Part shown: one piece after another, positions 49,620-64,000 of the stretch
Position numbering within the stretch: the first letter of the stretch is position 1
Layout of the letters: each line of letters starts with the position of its first letter
Assembly (NCBI RefSeq): GCF_004010195.1
Contig: NC_057755.1
Span: 9,826,891-9,890,890, forward strand
DNA from: Chiloscyllium plagiosum
Lineage: Eukaryota
Direction of reading: 5' to 3'
DNA: 64,000 nt
Notes under the pieces: model-generated
What the model saw: the letters and a program-made list of their open reading frames with translations, nothing else
What the model was told of the DNA's origin: nothing
Databases searched by the model: none
Program-made: the position numbers and the translations under genes

Positions 49620-50225
49620 NNNNNNNNNNNNNNNNNNNNNNNNNNNNNNNNNNNNNNNNNNNNNNNNNNNNNNNNNNNNNNNNNNNNNNNNNNNNNNNNN
49701 NNNNNNNNNNNNNNNNNNNNNNNNNNNNNNNNNNNNNNNNNNNNNNNNNNNNNNNNNNNNNNNNNNNNNNNNNNNNNNNNNNNNNNNNNNNNNNNNNNNN
49801 NNNNNNNNNNNNNNNNNNNNNNNNNNNNNNNNNNNNNNNNNNNNNNNNNNNNNNNNNNNNNNNNNNNNNNNNNNNNNNNNNNNNNNNNNNNNNNNNNNNN
49901 NNNNNNNNNNNNNNNNNNNNNNNNNNNNNNNNNNNNNNNNNNNNNNNNNNNNNNNNNNNNNNNNNNNNNNNNNNNNNNNNNNNNNNNNNNNNNNNNNNNN
50001 NNNNNNNNNNNNNNNNNNNNNNNNNNNNNNNNNNNNNNNNNNNNNNNNNNNNNNNNNNNNNNNNNNNNNNNNNNNNNNNNNNNNNNNNNNNNNNNNNNNN
50101 NNNNNNNNNNNNNNNNNNNNNNNNNNNNNNNNNNNNNNNNNNNNNNNNNNNNNNNNNNNNNNNNNNNNNNNNNNNNNNNNNNNNNNNNNNNNNNNNNNNN
50201 NNNNNNNNNNNNNNNNNNNNNNNNN
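49620..50225. other. Assembly gap (N run) with GC-rich flanks
   Basis: Directly visible. Confidence 1.
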
Positions 50226-50230
50226 GCTCC

Positions 50231-50412
50231 TTGGCTGTAACCCCGCCCCCTGGCTGTAACCCCGCCCCCTGACTGTCTGACCCCGCCCACTTGCTGTGAG
50301 ACCCCTTCTTGGGTAGACCCGCCACCCGAATGTGACCCCGCCCCCTTGCTGTTTGACCCCTCCCCTGGTTGTGACTCCGCCCCCTGCCGTGATCTCCAGG
50401 CCTGTCCAATGT
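50231..50412 (-). promoter_or_regulatory. GC-box (Sp/KLF) array with CCAAT box; probable promoter of the CCCH gene
   Basis: About 8 units of 18-21 bp, several with CCCCGCCCC or near matches, CCAAT near 50406; abuts the N gap upstream of the - strand gene. Confidence 0.55.
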
Positions 50413-56798: not shown

Positions 56799-57034
56799 TG
56801 ACATACCTCCCCAATGGCCTACATCCCACTATCAAGTCACCCTTTATCTACACATGGATAGTACTTGAGAGTTGTTCAGCTCCTTCAGAGCCAGCTGTCA
56901 GAGTGAACAAAACACCTGACCCTACTGTTTATATCTGTCAGCCAGGGCTCCCTGAGTGGGACTTGGTAAACAGCCCCAATCAGGGAACTCAAATTCTGAG
57001 AGTCCACTTGCCTGACCTCATTGCATTCACTTCA
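56799..57034 (-). repeat. Gypsy 3' LTR (about 236 bp, uninterrupted) with TATAAA at 56928-56933
   Basis: TG...CA ends on - strand, adjacent PPT, homology to 60581-60707. Confidence 0.8.
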
Positions 57035-60000
57035 TTCCTCCTCCTACCCAGTCCAGGGACAGGAGCCTATTGCAACCTCTCCTGAGGCATTTTCACGTTG
57101 GGTCCTTTCCTTTGACACCATCTCGCATGCGGGCAGCATGTACTAGAGTGTAACCTGCCTCTTGTAACTAGAATATCTCGGAAGAAGTTCATCCCCCTCA
57201 TCGAGAATGCGACATGTCCCGTGCCATCTCAGACTCAGAGTCTCTTTCGAGGCTAGACGGAGCAGACAGGCGAGTTTTGCTCATTCCCCATTTGTACCTG
57301 TCATGTGGTCCACTTACTTCTTCAGCAAATGCCAGAACCTTCAACATCACAGGACCTGACCTTGCACTGACCATGCTTCGTTCCCCCATGCAGGACCATT
57401 CCTGTGGTTACAACATCAAACCCCGACCCCTGAAGTAAACCTCGCTTGCTTAGATGAGTCTTGTGTCCGGCCTTAGTGTTCCCATTGTCGATTCACCCTC
57501 ACCTCTCCACATCCAAGTCTGGGAAGATCAGTATTAAACTGGTGCTGAGACTTCTCCCCATGAACTGTCCCTGTTGTTGTATCTCTTATATCTCTTATAA
57601 TCAAACAGGAGCCGGGACAGTTGGTATTGAGTGAAGCTGTTGGCTCTTTCTTTAAACCTGCTTTCAAAGTTAAACTGTTCTTTTCGCCAGACCATTGGAC
57701 GATGGCTGGAATGGTTCTGTCTTTATATGCAGAATGCCATCTGACTTTAGGAAATGCTCCAACTTCTTGCTGGGAAAAGATGGCCTGTTGTCTGTGATCA
57801 ACACTTCTTCCAGCCTGGTAGTTCGAAAGATGCTCGCTGCTTTCCTGTTATTGTTCAAAATGTTTGATGAATGAATCACATGTACGTCCAACCACTTTGG
57901 GTGGGTGTCTGCAATGACGAAGCATATTAACCCACAAAAGGGCCGATATAGTCAACATGAAACAGATTTATCCAGCCATTCCTACCAAGCTGGGTAGCTG
58001 CCGATGGTAATTTTTGTCCTTGTTGGCATTCTGGGCACTGCCCCACCAACACAGCTATGTTGGCATCCAATCCTGGCCACCGGACATAGCATCTCGCCAA
58101 CATGTTCATTTTGGAAGCACCGGACTGAGCTCAGCCACTATCTGTACTCGGTCCAATTCCTCCTGCTCCCCACAATAATATGCTGTTCTCTACAGTGATC
58201 TGGTCTCACTGGGTCCAGAAAGGTTTCAATCCTCAGTGTAATGGCCATTCTGTTTCCCCCAACACCACCAGCTCTTTTACTTTTGCCAGGACGGGGACGT
58301 TTTGTGCCCACAATTGGATATTGTCAGCGGTGAGTGGAATGGTGTCCAGAAAGTTTAAACCCAAAAAGGACTCTTCCAGAGAAGGTGCGACCAATAATTT
58401 ATCTACGAGCTGGATTTGGCTCGAGACATCCAGATTTGCTACTTGACCTCACGGACGGTGTTCCAACTTGTGATTGGGCACACTCAGAATGAGAGTCCAC
58501 TGCTGAATTCGACCTGAAGCTATGGATGGCACAGCTCTATTCCCTTTAAGTAGCCCTCACGAGGGGTTGTGTTCTGTTGCTATTACAAATTTACATCCGT
58601 AAAGGTATTGGTGGAATTTTCTCACAAGGAAGACCACCAAACTATCCTTTCCTGTCTGCACGTATTTGCACTCTCATCAGCCAAAGTACAGGAAGTGTAT
58701 GCTATTGGGCGTTCATCTCCATTGGGCTCTCTCTGTGAATCTATACTTTTCCTGACACTATATCGGGCAGGCATTGCATGTCAACACCAGATCTCGCTTA
58801 ACACCTTAGTCAATGATAGTAGTTTCTTCACTTCCCTAAAGACTGCATTTTGCTTATGAGACCAATTCTAATGCTAGCCATTTCTTAATAGCAGATGGAA
58901 GGTTGCCAGACTGGTGGCCTGGTCATGTGTGAACTTTCCCGAGTAATTCAGCAGCCCAAGGAAAGTACCAAGCTCCAGAACATATATAGGAGCAGGGACA
59001 CCCTTATTTTCCAACAGGTGTAACCCAGTCTTGTAGACTCTGTAATCCAAGTAGGTCATTTTGGGCTCCTGGACCACTTATTGTTCCTTCTATGGCATGC
59101 ATTCACCTTGGAGAACTGTCTAAGCACTGTGTTGAAATTCTCCAAGAGCTCTTTATTGGTCTTCCCGGTTATTAGCAAATCATGCAGATAAACGGTGAAT
59201 GGGATAAATTTTGTAAAATGTTCTCCATGGACCAGAGGAAAATGGTACAGGCTGACGACACCCCACAAGGTACAAACCCTTACGGGTTTTCAATGTGGTA
59301 TATCTCTGGGAATCATCATCTAACCACAATTGCAGGTACACATAGCTGCTGTCCAGCTTCCTGAAGGGCAGTCTCCTGCCAGGTTAGTGTAGGAGTCCTG
59401 TATGTGAAGAATTGGTTGTTTGCCCAGCTGTGACAATTTGTTAACTGTTTGTTTAAAATCCCCCCAGCGGCAAACCGACCTGTCAGGTTTCACCAGTGTT
59501 GCCCATTCTGCAAACTGTACTAGGTTGATGATTCCTTCCCTTTCTTGCATCCTGATTTCTGCCTCTGCTTTTTCACGTAAGGCAAAAGGCACTGGGCAGG
59601 CCTTGCAGAATCGGGAAATTGCTTCCTGGTCAACATTCAAGGTGGCCTTTGCTCCTTTGGGAATCCCTGGATCTTCCTGAAACATGCTGGGTATTTCAAT
59701 CGGACTTCACTCGGGCAACAATTTCATATGCAAAAAATGATCAGCCAATAAAGTTGAACTTTCCTCAGGCAATATGCCCCCATCAGCCTTGGGCTGAGAC
59801 TTTTTCTCCAATCAGTGGAAACTGAACCAGCTGTTTCTCATACAAGCCCAAAACGGAAGTTGTCCCCTTAATGTGTAAAGGTTCACCAGGATAGGTTCTC
59901 AGTCCAGCCGAGCTCTTCCACCAATTTAAGAGTTGGAGTCCCCAGCAAACCTTGTGAAAGATTGGTTCTGCAATCACTGATACAGCTGTTGCTAGTATCC

Positions 60001-60580
60001 ACCTCCATTAGAAGCAAGCGACCATTTAACCAGACATTTACTAAGGTTGATTCTGTTATGGATTTGCTAAGCAATGTAAATGTTCCAAGCCATCTGTAGG
60101 GGGCTTTGCAGGGTATGCACTCGCCTGGAAACCGGGCTATGAGTTTTCTTATTCACTTCAGGCTTAGGAGGACTCTTTCACTGCCTCGAGCTCACATACC
60201 GGCAGCAACTACAATGGCTTGCCAGCTCCAATCCTAAAGAAAACGTTAATGGCTTGGGCAAGGTTTGGCTTTGTTTTGGGATTTTGGTGTGGGCTGACCT
60301 GTAGTTCGTCTGCTCAGGATATGTCCTGAGGTGTTGCAATTCCTTCAGTCAAATGGTGTCTCTCCCCACCCCACCCCCCCACCCCCCCACACACACACCG
60401 GTTCAGTTGGCCTGGTGTGAGTGTCCACTTCAATTGGCATGTGCTGTAACTGATATGCCCCATTTATCACATTTTCCAATGACACAGTGCGACGTAGTGT
60501 TGGTTGAAGTCTAGTAAGCCTGGGCTTCAGCTAGTAAGCGTTTTGCATGGTTATATCATTGGTCCCATTTTTGTTATCAC

Positions 60581-60707
60581 TAAACTAATTCCCGAGAGGT
60601 TGGTATCGCATCACCAAGTCACCATTTATTTGCATATATGTAGTACTTCACACTGATGTAACTCCCTCAGAGCCAGCTCTCGGAGTGAACTGTATCCTTG
60701 ACCCTCC
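60581..60707 (-). repeat. Downstream half of Gypsy 5' LTR, cut at the TATA region by the Tx1 stack
   Basis: Shares caagtcacc, cagagccagct, gagtgaac and tgaccct with the 3' LTR; similarity stops at a T run just before tttatatc. Confidence 0.8.
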
Positions 60708-60742
60708 TTTTTTTTTCTTTTTAGAACCGCTGACATTCCTGC

Positions 60743-62409
60743 TTTTTTTTTCTTCTCTTAACACCCACACTACTGCCTAACTGTGGTAGTGCTTATTTTA
60801 CCCCCAGCATCTATCTTGTGTATGTGCAGGTGTGAGACACAGTGAGAGACACACGGTGTACGAATCTTTATTCAATTTCAACCACCAGGAAGAAAGGAAT
60901 GACCCGAGTAGTCAGTGACAAGCAGTGCCGGCTCAGTTGGCCTGGTGTAAGTGTCCACTTCAATTGGCATGCGTTTAACTGATATGCCCCATTTATCACA
61001 TTTTCCAATGACACAGCGTGACGTAGTGTTGGTTGGAGATATCGCTGCAAGATCTGAAGGTGGAATTTCGCGACCTGGGTGCGGACGCACACCAGCGACT
61101 GACCACCCTCCTCAGTAGGGAAACTCAGAACCTGTACAGTGACCCAATGCATCTTTTTGTCCCAGAAGAAGTTGACCAACGTTCCCTGGCTGTCAGCGAC
61201 AAAGCCAGGAGGAGGGACCAAAGTAACCAGCCGGTACCACAGCATGGCGGCCACCAGCTGGTTTATGACCAGCACTCGACTCCTGTAAGATAGCACTCGG
61301 AGCAGTCCTGTCCAGCGGCCTAGGTGAGCCGAGACTTTGGCCTCCAGCTCCTGCGTGCTCGCCGGCTAGGATTCCTCAGCCAGGCTGAGGTAGACCCCCA
61401 GGTAGAGGAGATGAGTGAATCTCCAGCTGAACCCCAGTAACTCCTCCGGCAGAGAGTCCACCCACCACGGACCGAACAGTAGTCTGGAACATTTGGCCCA
61501 GGTGATCCTGGCGGAAGATGCAGCCGAGTGCACGGCCTGGCATTCGCACATCCTCCCCAGGTCAGTTGGGTCGGTAAAAGTGAGGAGCATGTCGTCGGCA
61601 TAGGCCGAGAGGACCACCCCGTGCCCACACCGCGCAGAACCAGCCCTGACAACCTCCTCCGCAAGAGGTGCAGGCAAGGCTCCATGCACAGGGAATACAC
61701 GTGGCTGGACAGGGGGCAGCCTTGACGCACTCCTCTCCCGAAGCGAAGGGGCACCGTCAGTGACCCGTCAACTTTAACCAGACACTCTGCTGCAGCGTAC
61801 AAAAGTCGGATCCGGGCGATGAACTGTGTCCCGATCCCAAATGCCCGCACAGTCCCGAGAAGGTACTCGTGATCGACCCTGTCGAACACCTTCTCCTGGT
61901 CGAGAGAGAGGAAGGTGATCGGCAGACCAGCCCGTTGACAGAAATGAATCAGGTCCCAGACCAGATGGACGTTGTCATGTATCCTCCAACCCGGGACCGT
62001 GTAGGACTGGTCCAGGTTAATCATGTGGGCCAGCATGGAAGCCAGGCGAGAAGACAACGCCCTGGCGAAGATTTTGTAGTCCGTGCTGAGGGAGACTGGA
62101 CGCCAGTTCTTCAAAGAATGATGACCACCCTGCACCAAGAAAGGGGCAGCTCTCTGGCATTAAGACACTCCCCCAGGACCTGTGCATAGTCGCTCTCCAG
62201 GATGTCCCAGAATGCCCTGAAGAACTCCACAGTCAGCCCGTCCAGCCCCGGGGACTTGCCCCTCGAGAGCCGATCAAGGGCGCTGGTCAGCTCCTCTAAG
62301 GTGACCGGAGCATCGACTCTTCCTGTGCCCTCCGGGCCGAGCTGCAGCAGGTCCTCCCACAGCACTCGCCGAGCATCCTCGCTGGACGGATCCTGAGAGA
62401 ACAGAGCCG
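60743..62409 (-). mobile_element. 5'-truncated, internally deleted Tx1-clade element carrying the RT domain
   Basis: KSPGLDGLTVEFF, NWRPVSL, DYKIFA, LSLDQEKVFDRVDH, GVRQGCPLS, AYADD, YLGV motifs; same 3' UTR and tail as the copy at 62817. Confidence 0.9.
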
Positions 62410-62415
62410 TATATC

Positions 62416-62640
62416 TTTTTTATCTTTTTTTTTATTTAACCCCCACACTACCACCTAAGTGCGGTAGTGCTTATTTTTTTCAAACCTCTTGTTTACTTTT
62501 TTTTCCTTTTTTTTATTAACCCCTACACTACCACCTAAGTGCGGTAGTGCTTATTTTTGCCCCAGCACCCATGGTGTGTGTGTGTGTGCGCAGGTGTGAG
62601 ACACAGTGAAAGACACAAAGTGCACGAATCTTTATTTTAT
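62416..62640 (-). mobile_element. Two short Tx1 3'-end copies (about 65 bp and 140 bp), each with terminal stem-loop and A tail
   Basis: Repeats of cactaccacctaagtgcggtagtgcttattt near 62445 and 62526, matching 62838. Confidence 0.85.
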
Positions 62641-62680
62641 TTTTTTATTTTTTTGTGGTCCACGGACTCCACAGCGCCAT

Positions 62681-62805
62681 AAGCCTACTGCACCTGGTAT
62701 TCCCAAGCGGTCTCCCATCCAAGTACTAAGCAGGCCTGAGTCTGCTTAGCTTCTGAGATCAGACGAGATCTGGCGTTTTTTTTTCAGACTAGTATGGCCG
62801 TAGGT
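62681..62805 (-). pseudogene. Full-length 5S rRNA-derived copy (retrocopy or SINE head)
   Basis: Reverse complement reads ACCTACGGCCATACTAGTCTG(A)9CGCCAGATCTCGTCTGATCTCAGAAGCTAAGCAG...GTACTTGGATGGGAGACCGCTTGGGAATACCAGGTGCAGTAGGCTT; box A and box C recognisable; expanded A run; no T4 terminator. Confidence 0.93.
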
Positions 62806-62816
62806 CACTCCTGTTT

Positions 62817-64000
62817 CTTTTTTTTTCTTTAACCCCACACTACCACCTAAGTGCGGTAGTGCTTATTTTATCCCCAGCACCCATGGTGTGTGTGTGCGCA
62901 GGTGTGAGACACAGTGGAAGACACAAAGTGGACGAATCTTTATTCAATTTCCACCACCCCGAAGATAGGAAAACACCCGGGTGGCCAGTGACAAGCACTG
63001 CCCTTCACATCAAAGGGCAATGCCATGTGATCAAAACAGTGAAGGGGAGGGGAGGGACTAAATCAAAATAGAGTTGGAGGGAGAAATAATGCACTCCACT
63101 CCCTGCGGCGCCCACCTCTCCCTGATAAACTCCAGGGTGTTGGTGGACATCGCGTGCTCCTTCTCCAAGGACACCTGGGCTCTAACGTAACCACGGAAGA
63201 GGGGCAGGCAGTCAGCCCTAACGACCCCCTCCTCGGCCCGCTGCCTAGACCTGTTAATGGCCAGTTTGGCCAGACCCAGGAGCAGACCCACGAGGAGGTC
63301 TTCAGACCTGCCCTCCCTCCCTCCGTACCAGGTGCCCAAAGATCAGGAGCGTGGGACTGAAGTGCAACCAAAAGCAGAGGAGGAGGTTTTTCAGAAAATC
63401 AAAAAGGGAGTGCAAACACTCACACCCAATATACACATGCTCCACAGCACCACAGAACAAGCAGTTGGGCTGGGAGTCCGTGAACCACCGCAACCTGCGG
63501 TTGCAGGGGACTACTGCGTGCAGCACCCTCCACCCCAGATCCCCGAGAGAAAGGGGGAGGACTTCCGCATAGAGAGCCCTCCACTGGGGATCACCACCGC
63601 CCGGTGGCAAATGGGCACGCCAAGGAAGAAGAGGTGGATGGTGTGCAGCAGCAGTCTATACAGGGCCCGCCTTTTTACATCCTTAAAAGAAACAAAATTA
63701 AAATTCCAGGGGCGGCTCAGGTTGTGGGGCACAGGCTCCCACGGGAAGTACGGGACGTTGGGGCCAATGTGAAATTCCATCCGGGCTGGGGGTGAGCGCT
63801 GACGGGATCCCACCGCACACCTGAGCGTCCTCCAACTGGTGCACTACGTCGGGTCCAAGCACCGCCGTTTTAAGGCGTCGGATGGCGGTGGCCACGTACC
63901 GGACGTCTACCGCTGCCCTGCTCGCTATGTCCAGTGGTAGCGTCCAGCCCAGGCCCCCAGCACCCAGCACGTCCCCGACCCTGGTCACCCTCACCGCCGC
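62817..64000 (-). mobile_element. Tx1-clade non-LTR retrotransposon, ORF2 C-terminus + 3' UTR + A tail (continues beyond window)
   Basis: Frameshifted ORF2 end with DLGWRVLH, CLFCG..HVYIGC zinc knuckle and LLGLAKLAI; stop 63058; AATAAA, terminal stem-loop, A-rich tail. Confidence 0.88.

Follow-up and report, generated by a model that had tools for sequence, protein, structure and literature searches.

A Tx1-clade LINE of the shark Chiloscyllium plagiosum prefers the TATA-like box of a fossil LTR, has an LTR-derived start and may use the LTR promoter

The window, which is the whole 64,000-nt stretch of Chiloscyllium plagiosum DNA that was analysed, contains a decayed Gypsy-type element and a stack of Tx1 pieces at its 5' LTR. 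The following features were identified:

56799-57191, minus strand: intact 3' LTR of the decayed Gypsy-type element, with TG...CA ends and a purine tract just before it
56900-56906, minus strand: initiator-like TCACTCT, its A at LTR position +26; predicted start of LTR and Tx1 RNA
56928-56933, minus strand: TATAAA hexamer, the empty target site (LTR positions -4 to +2; +1 is 56929)
57192-60580, minus strand: broken Gypsy-type interior, in the order protease-RT-RNase H-integrase
60581-60707, minus strand: downstream remainder of the 5' LTR, beginning at about +5
60708-60742, minus strand: A-run and 20-nt foreign LTR piece (+2 to +21); not a Tx1 unit
60743-60927, minus strand: A-run and Tx1 3' end of the older subfamily, 83% identical to the younger copy (62827 onward)
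60928-61038, minus strand: copy of the local Gypsy interior (60398-60509), 104 of 111 positions identical
61039-62409, minus strand: 5'-truncated part of Tx1 ORF2 (RT; RVT_1, E 7e-20)
62410-62478, minus strand: short junction, A-run and 43-nt Tx1 3' end, 98% identical to the younger copy
62480-62635, minus strand: foreign target motif and A-run with a Tx1 3' end that is cut short near its AATAAA
62636-62816, minus strand: A-run, 27 nt of Tx1 ORF2, a whole 5S rRNA sequence and a foreign target motif
62817-64000, minus strand: A-run and younger Tx1 copy, which runs 551 nt beyond the window into an assembly gap

The TATAAA and TCACTCT motifs, which we take to be core promoter motifs with TCACTCT as the initiator, are spaced about 30 nt apart in the LTR. 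The host element has two LTRs (only half of the 5' one is there), TG...CA ends and a purine tract, and its integrase follows RT and RNase H, an order derived from weak Pfam matches that are all below the curated cut-offs (RT_RNaseH, E 0.03; Integrase_H2C2, 4e-5; rve, 2.5e-3); the protease and RT motifs were judged by eye, and the decayed RT pieces had no match in Pfam or PDB. Homology of the 3' LTR to other genomic copies stops at about 56799, and its likeness to the 5' LTR remnant is only 73% over 104 nt. The LTR copies are old, with a mean pairwise identity of 77%, and among 21 intact copies the exact TATAAA is found in 8 and the exact TCACTCT in 9.

An earlier sequence-only reading of the window had reported the intact 3' LTR, the break of the 5' LTR at 60707, A-tailed pieces in one orientation and LTR-like motifs at their junctions, all of which were observed. 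Its count of at least five insertions was too high: four Tx1 3' stem-loop ends are present, which probably come from two to four insertion events. What it had read as the first unit (60708-60742) is the 20-nt LTR-like piece between two A-runs, in which no Tx1 3' end was found. The second is a mosaic of an older-subfamily tail (itself spanning 60757-60927), the 111-nt Gypsy interior copy, which stands in place of approximately 1.3 kb of Tx1, and the RT part, which shares about 83-91% identity with other Tx1 copies; the fourth holds the whole 5S rRNA sequence (62682-62805; Rfam RF00001, 86 bits). The last 144 nt of the younger copy are 91-97% identical to other genomic copies. The upstream LTR half was not found in the 20 kb after the window, where a 500-N gap intervenes.

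The inserted element is a Tx1-clade LINE. ORF2 of copy L098 encodes an APE-type endonuclease (Exo_endo_phos, E 6e-12) and then an RT (RVT_1, E 5e-37), which is 62% identical to that of Tx1L (E 1e-163; human L1 ORF2p, E 6e-42) and groups with Tx1L at 100/100 in a tree of 21 rows, chosen from 120 matches and including no L1 and no named Keno or Tx1-Mar rows. A-tails, 5' truncation and target site duplications (TSDs) are all present in Tx1 copies, and a common open frame is located upstream of ORF2, whose 325 aa have no Pfam match. The hairpin loop of the endonuclease, a structure linked to target choice (PMC1950540), is three residues shorter than that of Tx1L in all 16 copies read.

By searching the Tx1 3' end genome-wide, 28 loci were collected, in 20 of which an LTR half breaks at the site (19 by rule and L008 by eye); 5 lie elsewhere and 3 could not be placed. 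Reciprocally, among 29 LTRs picked by their upstream half, 5 had Tx1 at the site, 1 had another element and 22 were intact. In the other loci, upstream LTR halves end at a mode of +11 and downstream halves begin at a mode of -2. A background of 127,563 bases contained only two LTR matches touching the site, both of them the window's own, so that random insertion within 10 nt would have a probability of about 3e-4 or less, as against 20/28. The LTR-flank share in three locus sets, all consisting of top BLAST matches in which stacks are over-sampled, was 20/28, 9/29 and 11/30, which is above the rule for target-specific Tx1 families (one flank type in over 20% of copies; Kojima 2015, PMC4494074). 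At least 5 of the 29 long copies sit outside the LTR, and an LTR half is visible at only 9 of them, many ends falling in gaps. Taken together, these data support that the family has a preference for one site of the LTR, at which its copies share one orientation and form stacks. The targeting claimed by the sequence-only reading thus holds with regard to preference, orientation and stacking, but not exclusivity (5 of the 25 loci that could be placed lie elsewhere); it is a strong preference. The junction motif does in part travel with the element, which had been named as evidence against targeting, yet targeting still stands because LTR halves flank most stacks.

The TSD was 12-18 nt long in 12 of the 14 loci examined (10-11 nt in the other 2) and begins within the TATAAA hexamer. 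Since the 12-18 nt duplication includes this TATA-like hexamer, the upstream copy stays whole before the new Tx1, and the LTR promoter is not simply split, as had been proposed. It is the LTR remainder, rather than the upstream half, that loses its upstream region on insertion. The 3' end of a second family and SINE pieces were also observed at the same LTR site.

It is possible, if doubtful, that the endonuclease has just an L1-like preference for TAAA, and that the LTR hot spot results from RNA-DNA homology or safe-haven survival, a view that would be compatible with promoter use. The off-LTR TSDs with both ends read (L002, L019, L028 and L069) start with TAAA, which is in line with this explanation, as are the shortened hairpin loop and the sharing of the site with other elements. 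On the other hand, 5'-truncated copies that carry no LTR head reach the site equally precisely and in one orientation, and TAAA occurs everywhere, yet 20 of the 25 resolvable loci use the LTR site.

Full-length copies of the older type start with LTR sequence up to about +70. This LTR match adjoins the unique 5' UTR in 22 of 28 distinct places picked by that UTR alone, although several of these loci are near-duplicates and about 15 places are independent. An LTR stretch is present at both ends of a full-length copy in L189, L190 and L196; in the latter two, local alleles are common up to +26 and the first differences appear at +27 and +29. In L211, L213 and L273, the upstream LTR half passes straight into the Tx1 head. 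Heads that meet unrelated DNA begin at +23, +25, +27 and +29 (+19 is ambiguous), which would place the RNA start at the initiator (+26), an estimate based on 4-5 junctions in loci selected for heads by construction. Five other heads begin further in (+37 to +48), the alleles of L189 switch at +13 and the head of L169 does not match its downstream LTR, so that not every head fits the model. In the younger subfamily, which is the commoner one, all that remains of the LTR is +48 to +66, placed behind the subfamily's own 3' region; this region is copied as a head in 28 of 30 loci.

As full-length copies begin with downstream LTR sequence, the LTR promoter has likely been taken over rather than just broken. 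Overall, we consider it fairly probable, judging from the copies themselves, that this Tx1-clade LINE prefers the TATA-like box of a fossil LTR, has an LTR-derived start and uses the LTR promoter to make its RNA. Alternatively, targeting and homology-guided joining might be real and the head a passive relic, the LTR promoter being dead and the Tx1 promoter internal (lying in the head, in the 5' UTR or in the repeated 3' region, as for HeT-A/TART). The Gypsy family is indeed decayed (stop codons in about 130 of 149 other matches, no open frame longer than 299 aa), the younger subfamily retains little of the LTR, and four copies (L107, L096, L135 and L076) start at one internal point, 962-965 of the reference copy, that could mark an internal promoter. 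However, TATA and head start are separated by the canonical distance between TATA and initiator, an inserted element still has the TATA-like box and the upstream LTR before it, and foreign pieces as well as entire upstream neighbours travel with Tx1, as transcription from upstream would predict; we regard the relic explanation as unlikely.

The junctions within the window provide further information on such RNAs. The internal motifs are unlike each other and unlike the local LTR allele and are thus not duplications of this locus's target. The piece at 60708-60742 differs from the local allele at 7-8 of 18 places (by eye) and probably came with the next Tx1 copy as read-through sequence. A 164-nt piece with the 5S sequence is identical at 163 of 164 positions to an LTR junction on another contig (L138), and the 62636-62816 segment was likely carried over from a donor locus. 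Beyond the window, LTR-type motifs lie between two A-runs in off-LTR insertions (L002, L019 and L028), and of the recurrent motif-plus-body junctions, one was found at 4 unlinked loci and about 7 others at 2 loci each. The window's junction motifs, previously interpreted as local TSDs, are therefore foreign target copies, which read-through RNA is likely to have carried. That the A-tailed units all represent separate insertions and the motifs all local LTR TSDs, with no RNA-carried target sequence, appears very improbable. A local motif is repeated in many stacks (L013, L018, L022, L027 and L028) and R1 arrays arise in this way (PMC2718515), but the mutual differences of the window motifs, the near-identity of one of them to a junction on another contig and the presence of LTR-type motifs inside insertions far from any LTR all argue against it.

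Among 19 loci examined, the 5S variant was joined to Tx1 in two others (L138 and L139) and partially in L027, and these joins represent either a few chimeras or a very small family. A large family of SINE3 type, in which a 5S head is joined to a LINE tail, was not found; 17 of the 19 loci are 5S copies that lack the Tx1 tail.

The exact 5' junction of an older copy often recurs in new copies, an indication that joining is guided by homology. Of 29 headed copies, 7 have an upstream copy with the same junction that continues into the 3' end, which the downstream copy lacks there; the copies at L012 have one junction in common and belong to different subfamily variants. The less diverged copy was the upstream one in 18 of 25 groups (p 0.043). 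Mismatch between neighbours relative to background was 0.46 at 8-30 nt, 0.67 at 30-150 nt and 0.9 beyond, and rare variants are common to neighbours above expectation even beyond 100 nt, such that long duplications may explain some of the repeats. That whole-unit duplication alone produced the same-junction copies was rejected, on account of the differing continuations, the subfamilies and the age gradient. In a broader form, one or two insertions would have given rise to the stacks, through tandem duplication by unequal recombination or through errors of assembly. The similarity of neighbours up to 150 nt, the many assembly gaps and some duplicated loci agree with this idea, and single loci could be mis-joined because the assembly is gapped. 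Nevertheless, same-junction copies that run into different sequence, their differences in subfamily and age, and interleaved pieces derived from other loci leave it hardly credible.

The preferred reading, promoter use by a Tx1 LINE at the LTR site, could be described as a series of steps. Insertion duplicates 12-18 nt and leaves a whole TATA-like box before the new copy, as the observed TSDs indicate; older-type full-length copies are headed by LTR sequence, and the heads that meet unrelated DNA have starts at +23 to +29. Tx1 RNA may start at the initiator of the LTR (+26); immediately beyond the nick, the end of the cDNA may anneal to the LTR strand that matches it, so that the Tx1 start falls exactly at the LTR start. 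The younger subfamily, with its own 3' region before a shortened LTR remnant in the copies observed, may have arisen from a copy transcribed through an upstream truncated neighbour. A new cDNA may anneal to an older Tx1 copy at the site; the same 5' junction would thereby recur in a stack with different bodies, and stacks would tend to grow on the promoter side. Finally, owing to weak 3' end formation, RNAs made at one locus might extend through its target copy and from a few to a few hundred bases past it; carried to another locus, such read-through sequence would produce the mixed junction motifs of this window. In its fullest form, which we think about as likely as its opposite, the LINE would be a promoter parasite of a dead LTR: the first approximately 45 transcribed LTR bases would be captured as its 5' end, the target would be cut at the TATA, and a TATA-initiator promoter would be rebuilt before each full-length copy by cDNA-target annealing. 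The 3' region of the younger subfamily would serve as a terminal repeat docking on earlier copies, and site choice would be partly guided by RNA homology rather than by the endonuclease alone.

The aim of Tx1 elements at other mobile elements is usually ascribed to safe landing. The shark copies suggest that a promoter ready for use, whose start site is predicted exactly, is gained as well. They appear to record homology-guided second-strand joining, as modelled for R1/R2, in a vertebrate L1-like (APE) element, as well as a route by which a LINE acquires a terminal repeat. In annotation, a junction motif within such a stack cannot be taken for a TSD or scored as an insertion event.

The literature searched, which did not extend to Repbase or subscription journals and is thus weak evidence of absence, contained no LTR-derived Tx1 head and no shark Tx1 at an LTR TATA box; relative to those papers, the LTR head, the +23 to +29 start, the own-3' head and the re-use of 5' junctions appear to be new. 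The closest relative compared is Tx1L of Xenopus laevis (UniRef YTX2 protein), which belongs to the same clade (62% identity in the RT, 45% in the endonuclease region) and also uses one site in another mobile element, Tx1D (PMC4494074, PMC1950540). Unlike the LTR entered by shark Tx1, its target is a DNA transposon; its hairpin loop has 11 residues rather than 8, and it is described as stringent, whereas shark Tx1 is leaky. Crocodilian Tx1 families preferring LTR retrotransposons have been described (Kojima 2015, PMC4494074). For Tx1-8_Crp, Tx1-4_AMi and Tx1-Mar/SINEU, the main text of that paper names neither the LTR family nor the site and mentions no captured LTR head and no initiator match, although supplementary figures S3-S4 may name the site; the Tx1-8_Crp/Tx1-4_AMi/Tx1-Mar group clusters with Keno and is compared with shark Tx1 by description only (PMC4494074).

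R1 and R2 of arthropods resemble shark Tx1 in forming tandem arrays as new copies enter the TSD that lies at an older copy's 5' end, in precise junctions formed when target sequence present at the RNA's 5' end anneals to the target (in earwig R2, the 5' end carries 22 bp of downstream 28S) and in their dependence on transcription of the target, which is in their case a live rRNA gene transcribed by Pol I, with ribozyme processing in R2 (PMC2718515, PMC3774820). In contrast, shark Tx1 enters a fossil Pol II promoter that is dispersed and belongs to another retroelement, and the Tx1 junctions also appear to be re-used via homology to Tx1 copies already present.

HeT-A and TART of Drosophila are telomeric, jockey-type elements. 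Their likeness to shark Tx1 lies in head-to-tail arrays, transcription from upstream of the element (HeT-A) and a 3' sequence directly repeated at the 5' end (TART), but they have the promoter in their own 3' region, not in a foreign LTR (PMC1636488). L1 3' transduction similarly involves a read-through RNA that contains an A-run internally, flank and a further poly(A) (PMC3649969). In shark Tx1, the carried flank differs: in most cases it is a further target copy and so resembles a TSD.

All elements treated here lie on the minus strand of the window, and loci carrying L-numbers were drawn by similarity searches of the 3.56 Gb genome. The Tx1 stack is hosted by the following element:

56799-60707, minus strand, decayed LTR element (LTRs and broken pol pieces)

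The pol order is protease, RT, RNase H and integrase, with weak Pfam matches and with the protease and RT pieces assigned by eye. The 3' LTR is whole, and the 5' LTR, which starts at about +5 behind an A-run, shows 73% identity to it (numbering sets +1 at 56929, hence TATAAA at -4 to +2). Judged by its sequences, this Gypsy-type family is a fossil; stop codons, counted by eye, were found in about 130 of 149 other family matches, and 21 intact LTRs have a mean identity of 77% (maximum 88%). Among these 21, TATAAA occupies -4 to +2 in 8 and TCACTCT occupies +24 to +30 in 9, a distance that equals the usual TATA-initiator spacing. Elsewhere, a GC-rich tandem repeat in which long frames overlap adjoins an N run at 50218-50403, and a 307-aa open frame that by eye looks like a G-protein-coupled receptor lies about 13 kb beyond the window (L032, extended coordinates 77367-78287, minus strand).

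A search with the Tx1 3' end returned 30 loci, or 28 once the window and one overlapping locus were set aside. By rule, 19 of the 28 have an LTR half that terminates at the stack (upstream half in 17, downstream half in 14, both in 12), as does L008 by eye, in agreement with the sequence-only reading that Tx1 targets the TATA box of this LTR. Upstream halves end most often at +11 and downstream halves begin most often at -2. Of 14 loci, 12 had a TSD 12-18 nt long, and 127,563 bases of background contained two site matches, both from the window itself. Every locus set consists of best BLAST hits, in which stacks are over-sampled; among 29 LTRs chosen reciprocally by the upstream half only, Tx1 occupied the site in 5 and another element in 1, and 22 were intact. 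Targeting of the LTR site by Tx1 is almost certain. In five of the 28 loci (L002, L003, L009, L019 and L028) the insertion is away from the LTR; the other three are short contigs that gave no clear placement. Among long Tx1 copies, many of whose ends fall in gaps, the LTR was present in 9 of 29 and at least 5 were clearly elsewhere. TSDs of off-LTR insertions likewise start with TAAA. Taken together, site choice, as read from these insertions, is a strong preference rather than strict specificity; the site may be selected by the endonuclease or through RNA homology. Tx1 also targets, at the identical position, a second LTR subtype (L047, L199, L200, L204) whose sequence diverges past +8, and this subtype accounts for the second class of junction motif. 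Moreover, another 3' end, A-rich in its tail and apparently unrelated to the first, occurs at the same site (L044:1606-1811 on the element strand, L190:900-1420, L011 and L025); no long frame was found in 1 kb of it, and it may belong to a second family or to a non-autonomous partner.

The window's stack had been read as at least five insertions parted by target duplications, neither of which survived closer analysis. It has four Tx1 3' ends: the first supposed unit consists of a 20-nt LTR-like stretch flanked by A-runs, the second a mosaic including 111 nt from the local Gypsy interior, and the fourth contains 5S rRNA sequence. The last copy extends into a 500-N gap, and no upstream LTR half was found in the 20 kb beyond the window, in which this gap intervenes. 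The window's junction motifs differ from the local allele and from one another. The window's 5S piece with its motif matches an LTR junction on another contig (L138) at 163 of 164 positions, and the insertions L002, L019 and L028, all distant from LTRs, contain LTR-type motifs enclosed by two A-runs. One motif-plus-body junction recurs at four unlinked loci and about seven others at two loci each, remaining clusters having been excluded as element-internal or LTR-like matches. The window motifs very probably derive from read-through RNA, in which case only 2-4 insertion events would be required. Read-through RNA is already known for L1 (PMC3649969).

Several observations accompany these junctions. 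In L138, L139, L027 and the window (62682-62805), a 5S variant containing a short A insertion is fused to Tx1 ORF2 at the LTR site, possibly a nascent 5S-headed SINE. Many near-identical 5S copies with common flanks are dispersed over different contigs, often adjoining gaps (L140-L156); they either represent dispersed 5S units or stem from the assembly. In L051 and L108, tRNA-type SINE sequence sits between target motif and Tx1 piece, possibly through template switching. Local DNA was copied into the window's Tx1 at 60928-61038, and in L012 and L006 the stack's own junction is repeated shortly downstream of the LTR end, which points to a template switch or faulty joining close to the nick.

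The 5' ends of Tx1 copies were examined with unique 5' UTR sequence from older-type copies as query (30 loci in 28 places). LTR sequence up to +62/+70 adjoins the 5' UTR in 22 of the 28 places, about 15 of them independent once near-duplicates are collapsed. Past the 3' tail of L189, L190 and L196, the LTR picks up again close to the site, leaving this LTR stretch at both ends; local alleles agree to +26 in L190 and L196, first differing at +27 and +29, and switch at +13 in L189. In L169, head and downstream LTR disagree. A broader search set of 53 loci, for which the head was in part the selection criterion, yielded 50 rows (including one false anchor and some duplicates), with head starts at or before +13 in 40 (3 with the upstream LTR half), at +19 to +29 in 5 and at +37 to +48 in 5. 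In L224, +12 is fused directly to +25. From the head starts and the TATA-initiator spacing of intact LTRs, we infer that Tx1 RNA starts at about +26, and on balance the DNA junctions favor use of the LTR promoter by Tx1. Both off-LTR heads, L188 (1455) and L203 (1454), show a G immediately preceding the point where LTR-derived sequence begins; with no more than these two cases, the G could reflect a copied RNA cap. In the younger type, a copy of its own 3' region, ending at 1578-1598, precedes the LTR remnant in 28 of 30 loci (numbered on a 1726 nt reference copy running from 62826 to the gap, 3' end = 1726). Several of these heads begin at 962-965, which leaves room for an internal promoter.

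Within stacks, one 5' junction is repeated in 29 groups at 28 loci (88 of 208 copies). At 8-30 nt from the junction, neighbors mismatched at 0.46 of the background rate; the ratio rose to 0.67 over 30-150 nt and to about 0.9 further out. In 18 of 25 groups the upstream copy was less diverged (p 0.043). Subfamily variants also differ among those L012 copies that have one junction. Simple duplication cannot yield the differing continuations of 7 of 29 headed copies, in which an upstream copy runs from the common junction into a 3' end that its neighbor lacks there, and it is ruled out as the sole source. Homology-guided joining is the likely process, whereby new cDNA would anneal to an older Tx1 copy and acquire the same 5' junction with a different body; some long duplication probably occurred as well. 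On contig C18 (L085/L102/L121), a Tx1 body passes at 1588 directly into a second copy's head, resembling two elements with one terminal repeat in common. On contig C15 (L191-L192), two full-length tandem copies have an identical locus-specific LTR junction.

Endonuclease and RT domains were detected in a full-length copy. The RT shares 62% identity with Xenopus Tx1L (most fish matches, 43-50%) and groups with it at 100/100, the nearest relative in the tree being a stingray protein, which makes a cartilaginous fish the probable host. The endonuclease region is 45% identical to Tx1L; in all 16 copies read here its hairpin loop is 8 residues long, compared with 11 in Tx1L. In the literature searched, with Repbase outside its coverage, no initiator-aligned captured LTR head, derived terminal repeat or re-use of junctions was found. 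A heteroduplex model is published for R1 and R2 (PMC2718515, PMC3774820), and the own-3' head of the younger type recalls TART and HeT-A (PMC1636488). Kojima 2015 (PMC4494074) describes a preference of crocodilian Tx1-8_Crp and Tx1-4_AMi for LTR retrotransposons, tandem insertions around a TSD, and a 5' extension taken from the target, together with transcription possibly driven by the flank; its supplements may name the LTR site. LTR targeting and stacking are thus already known in kind from these crocodilian families.
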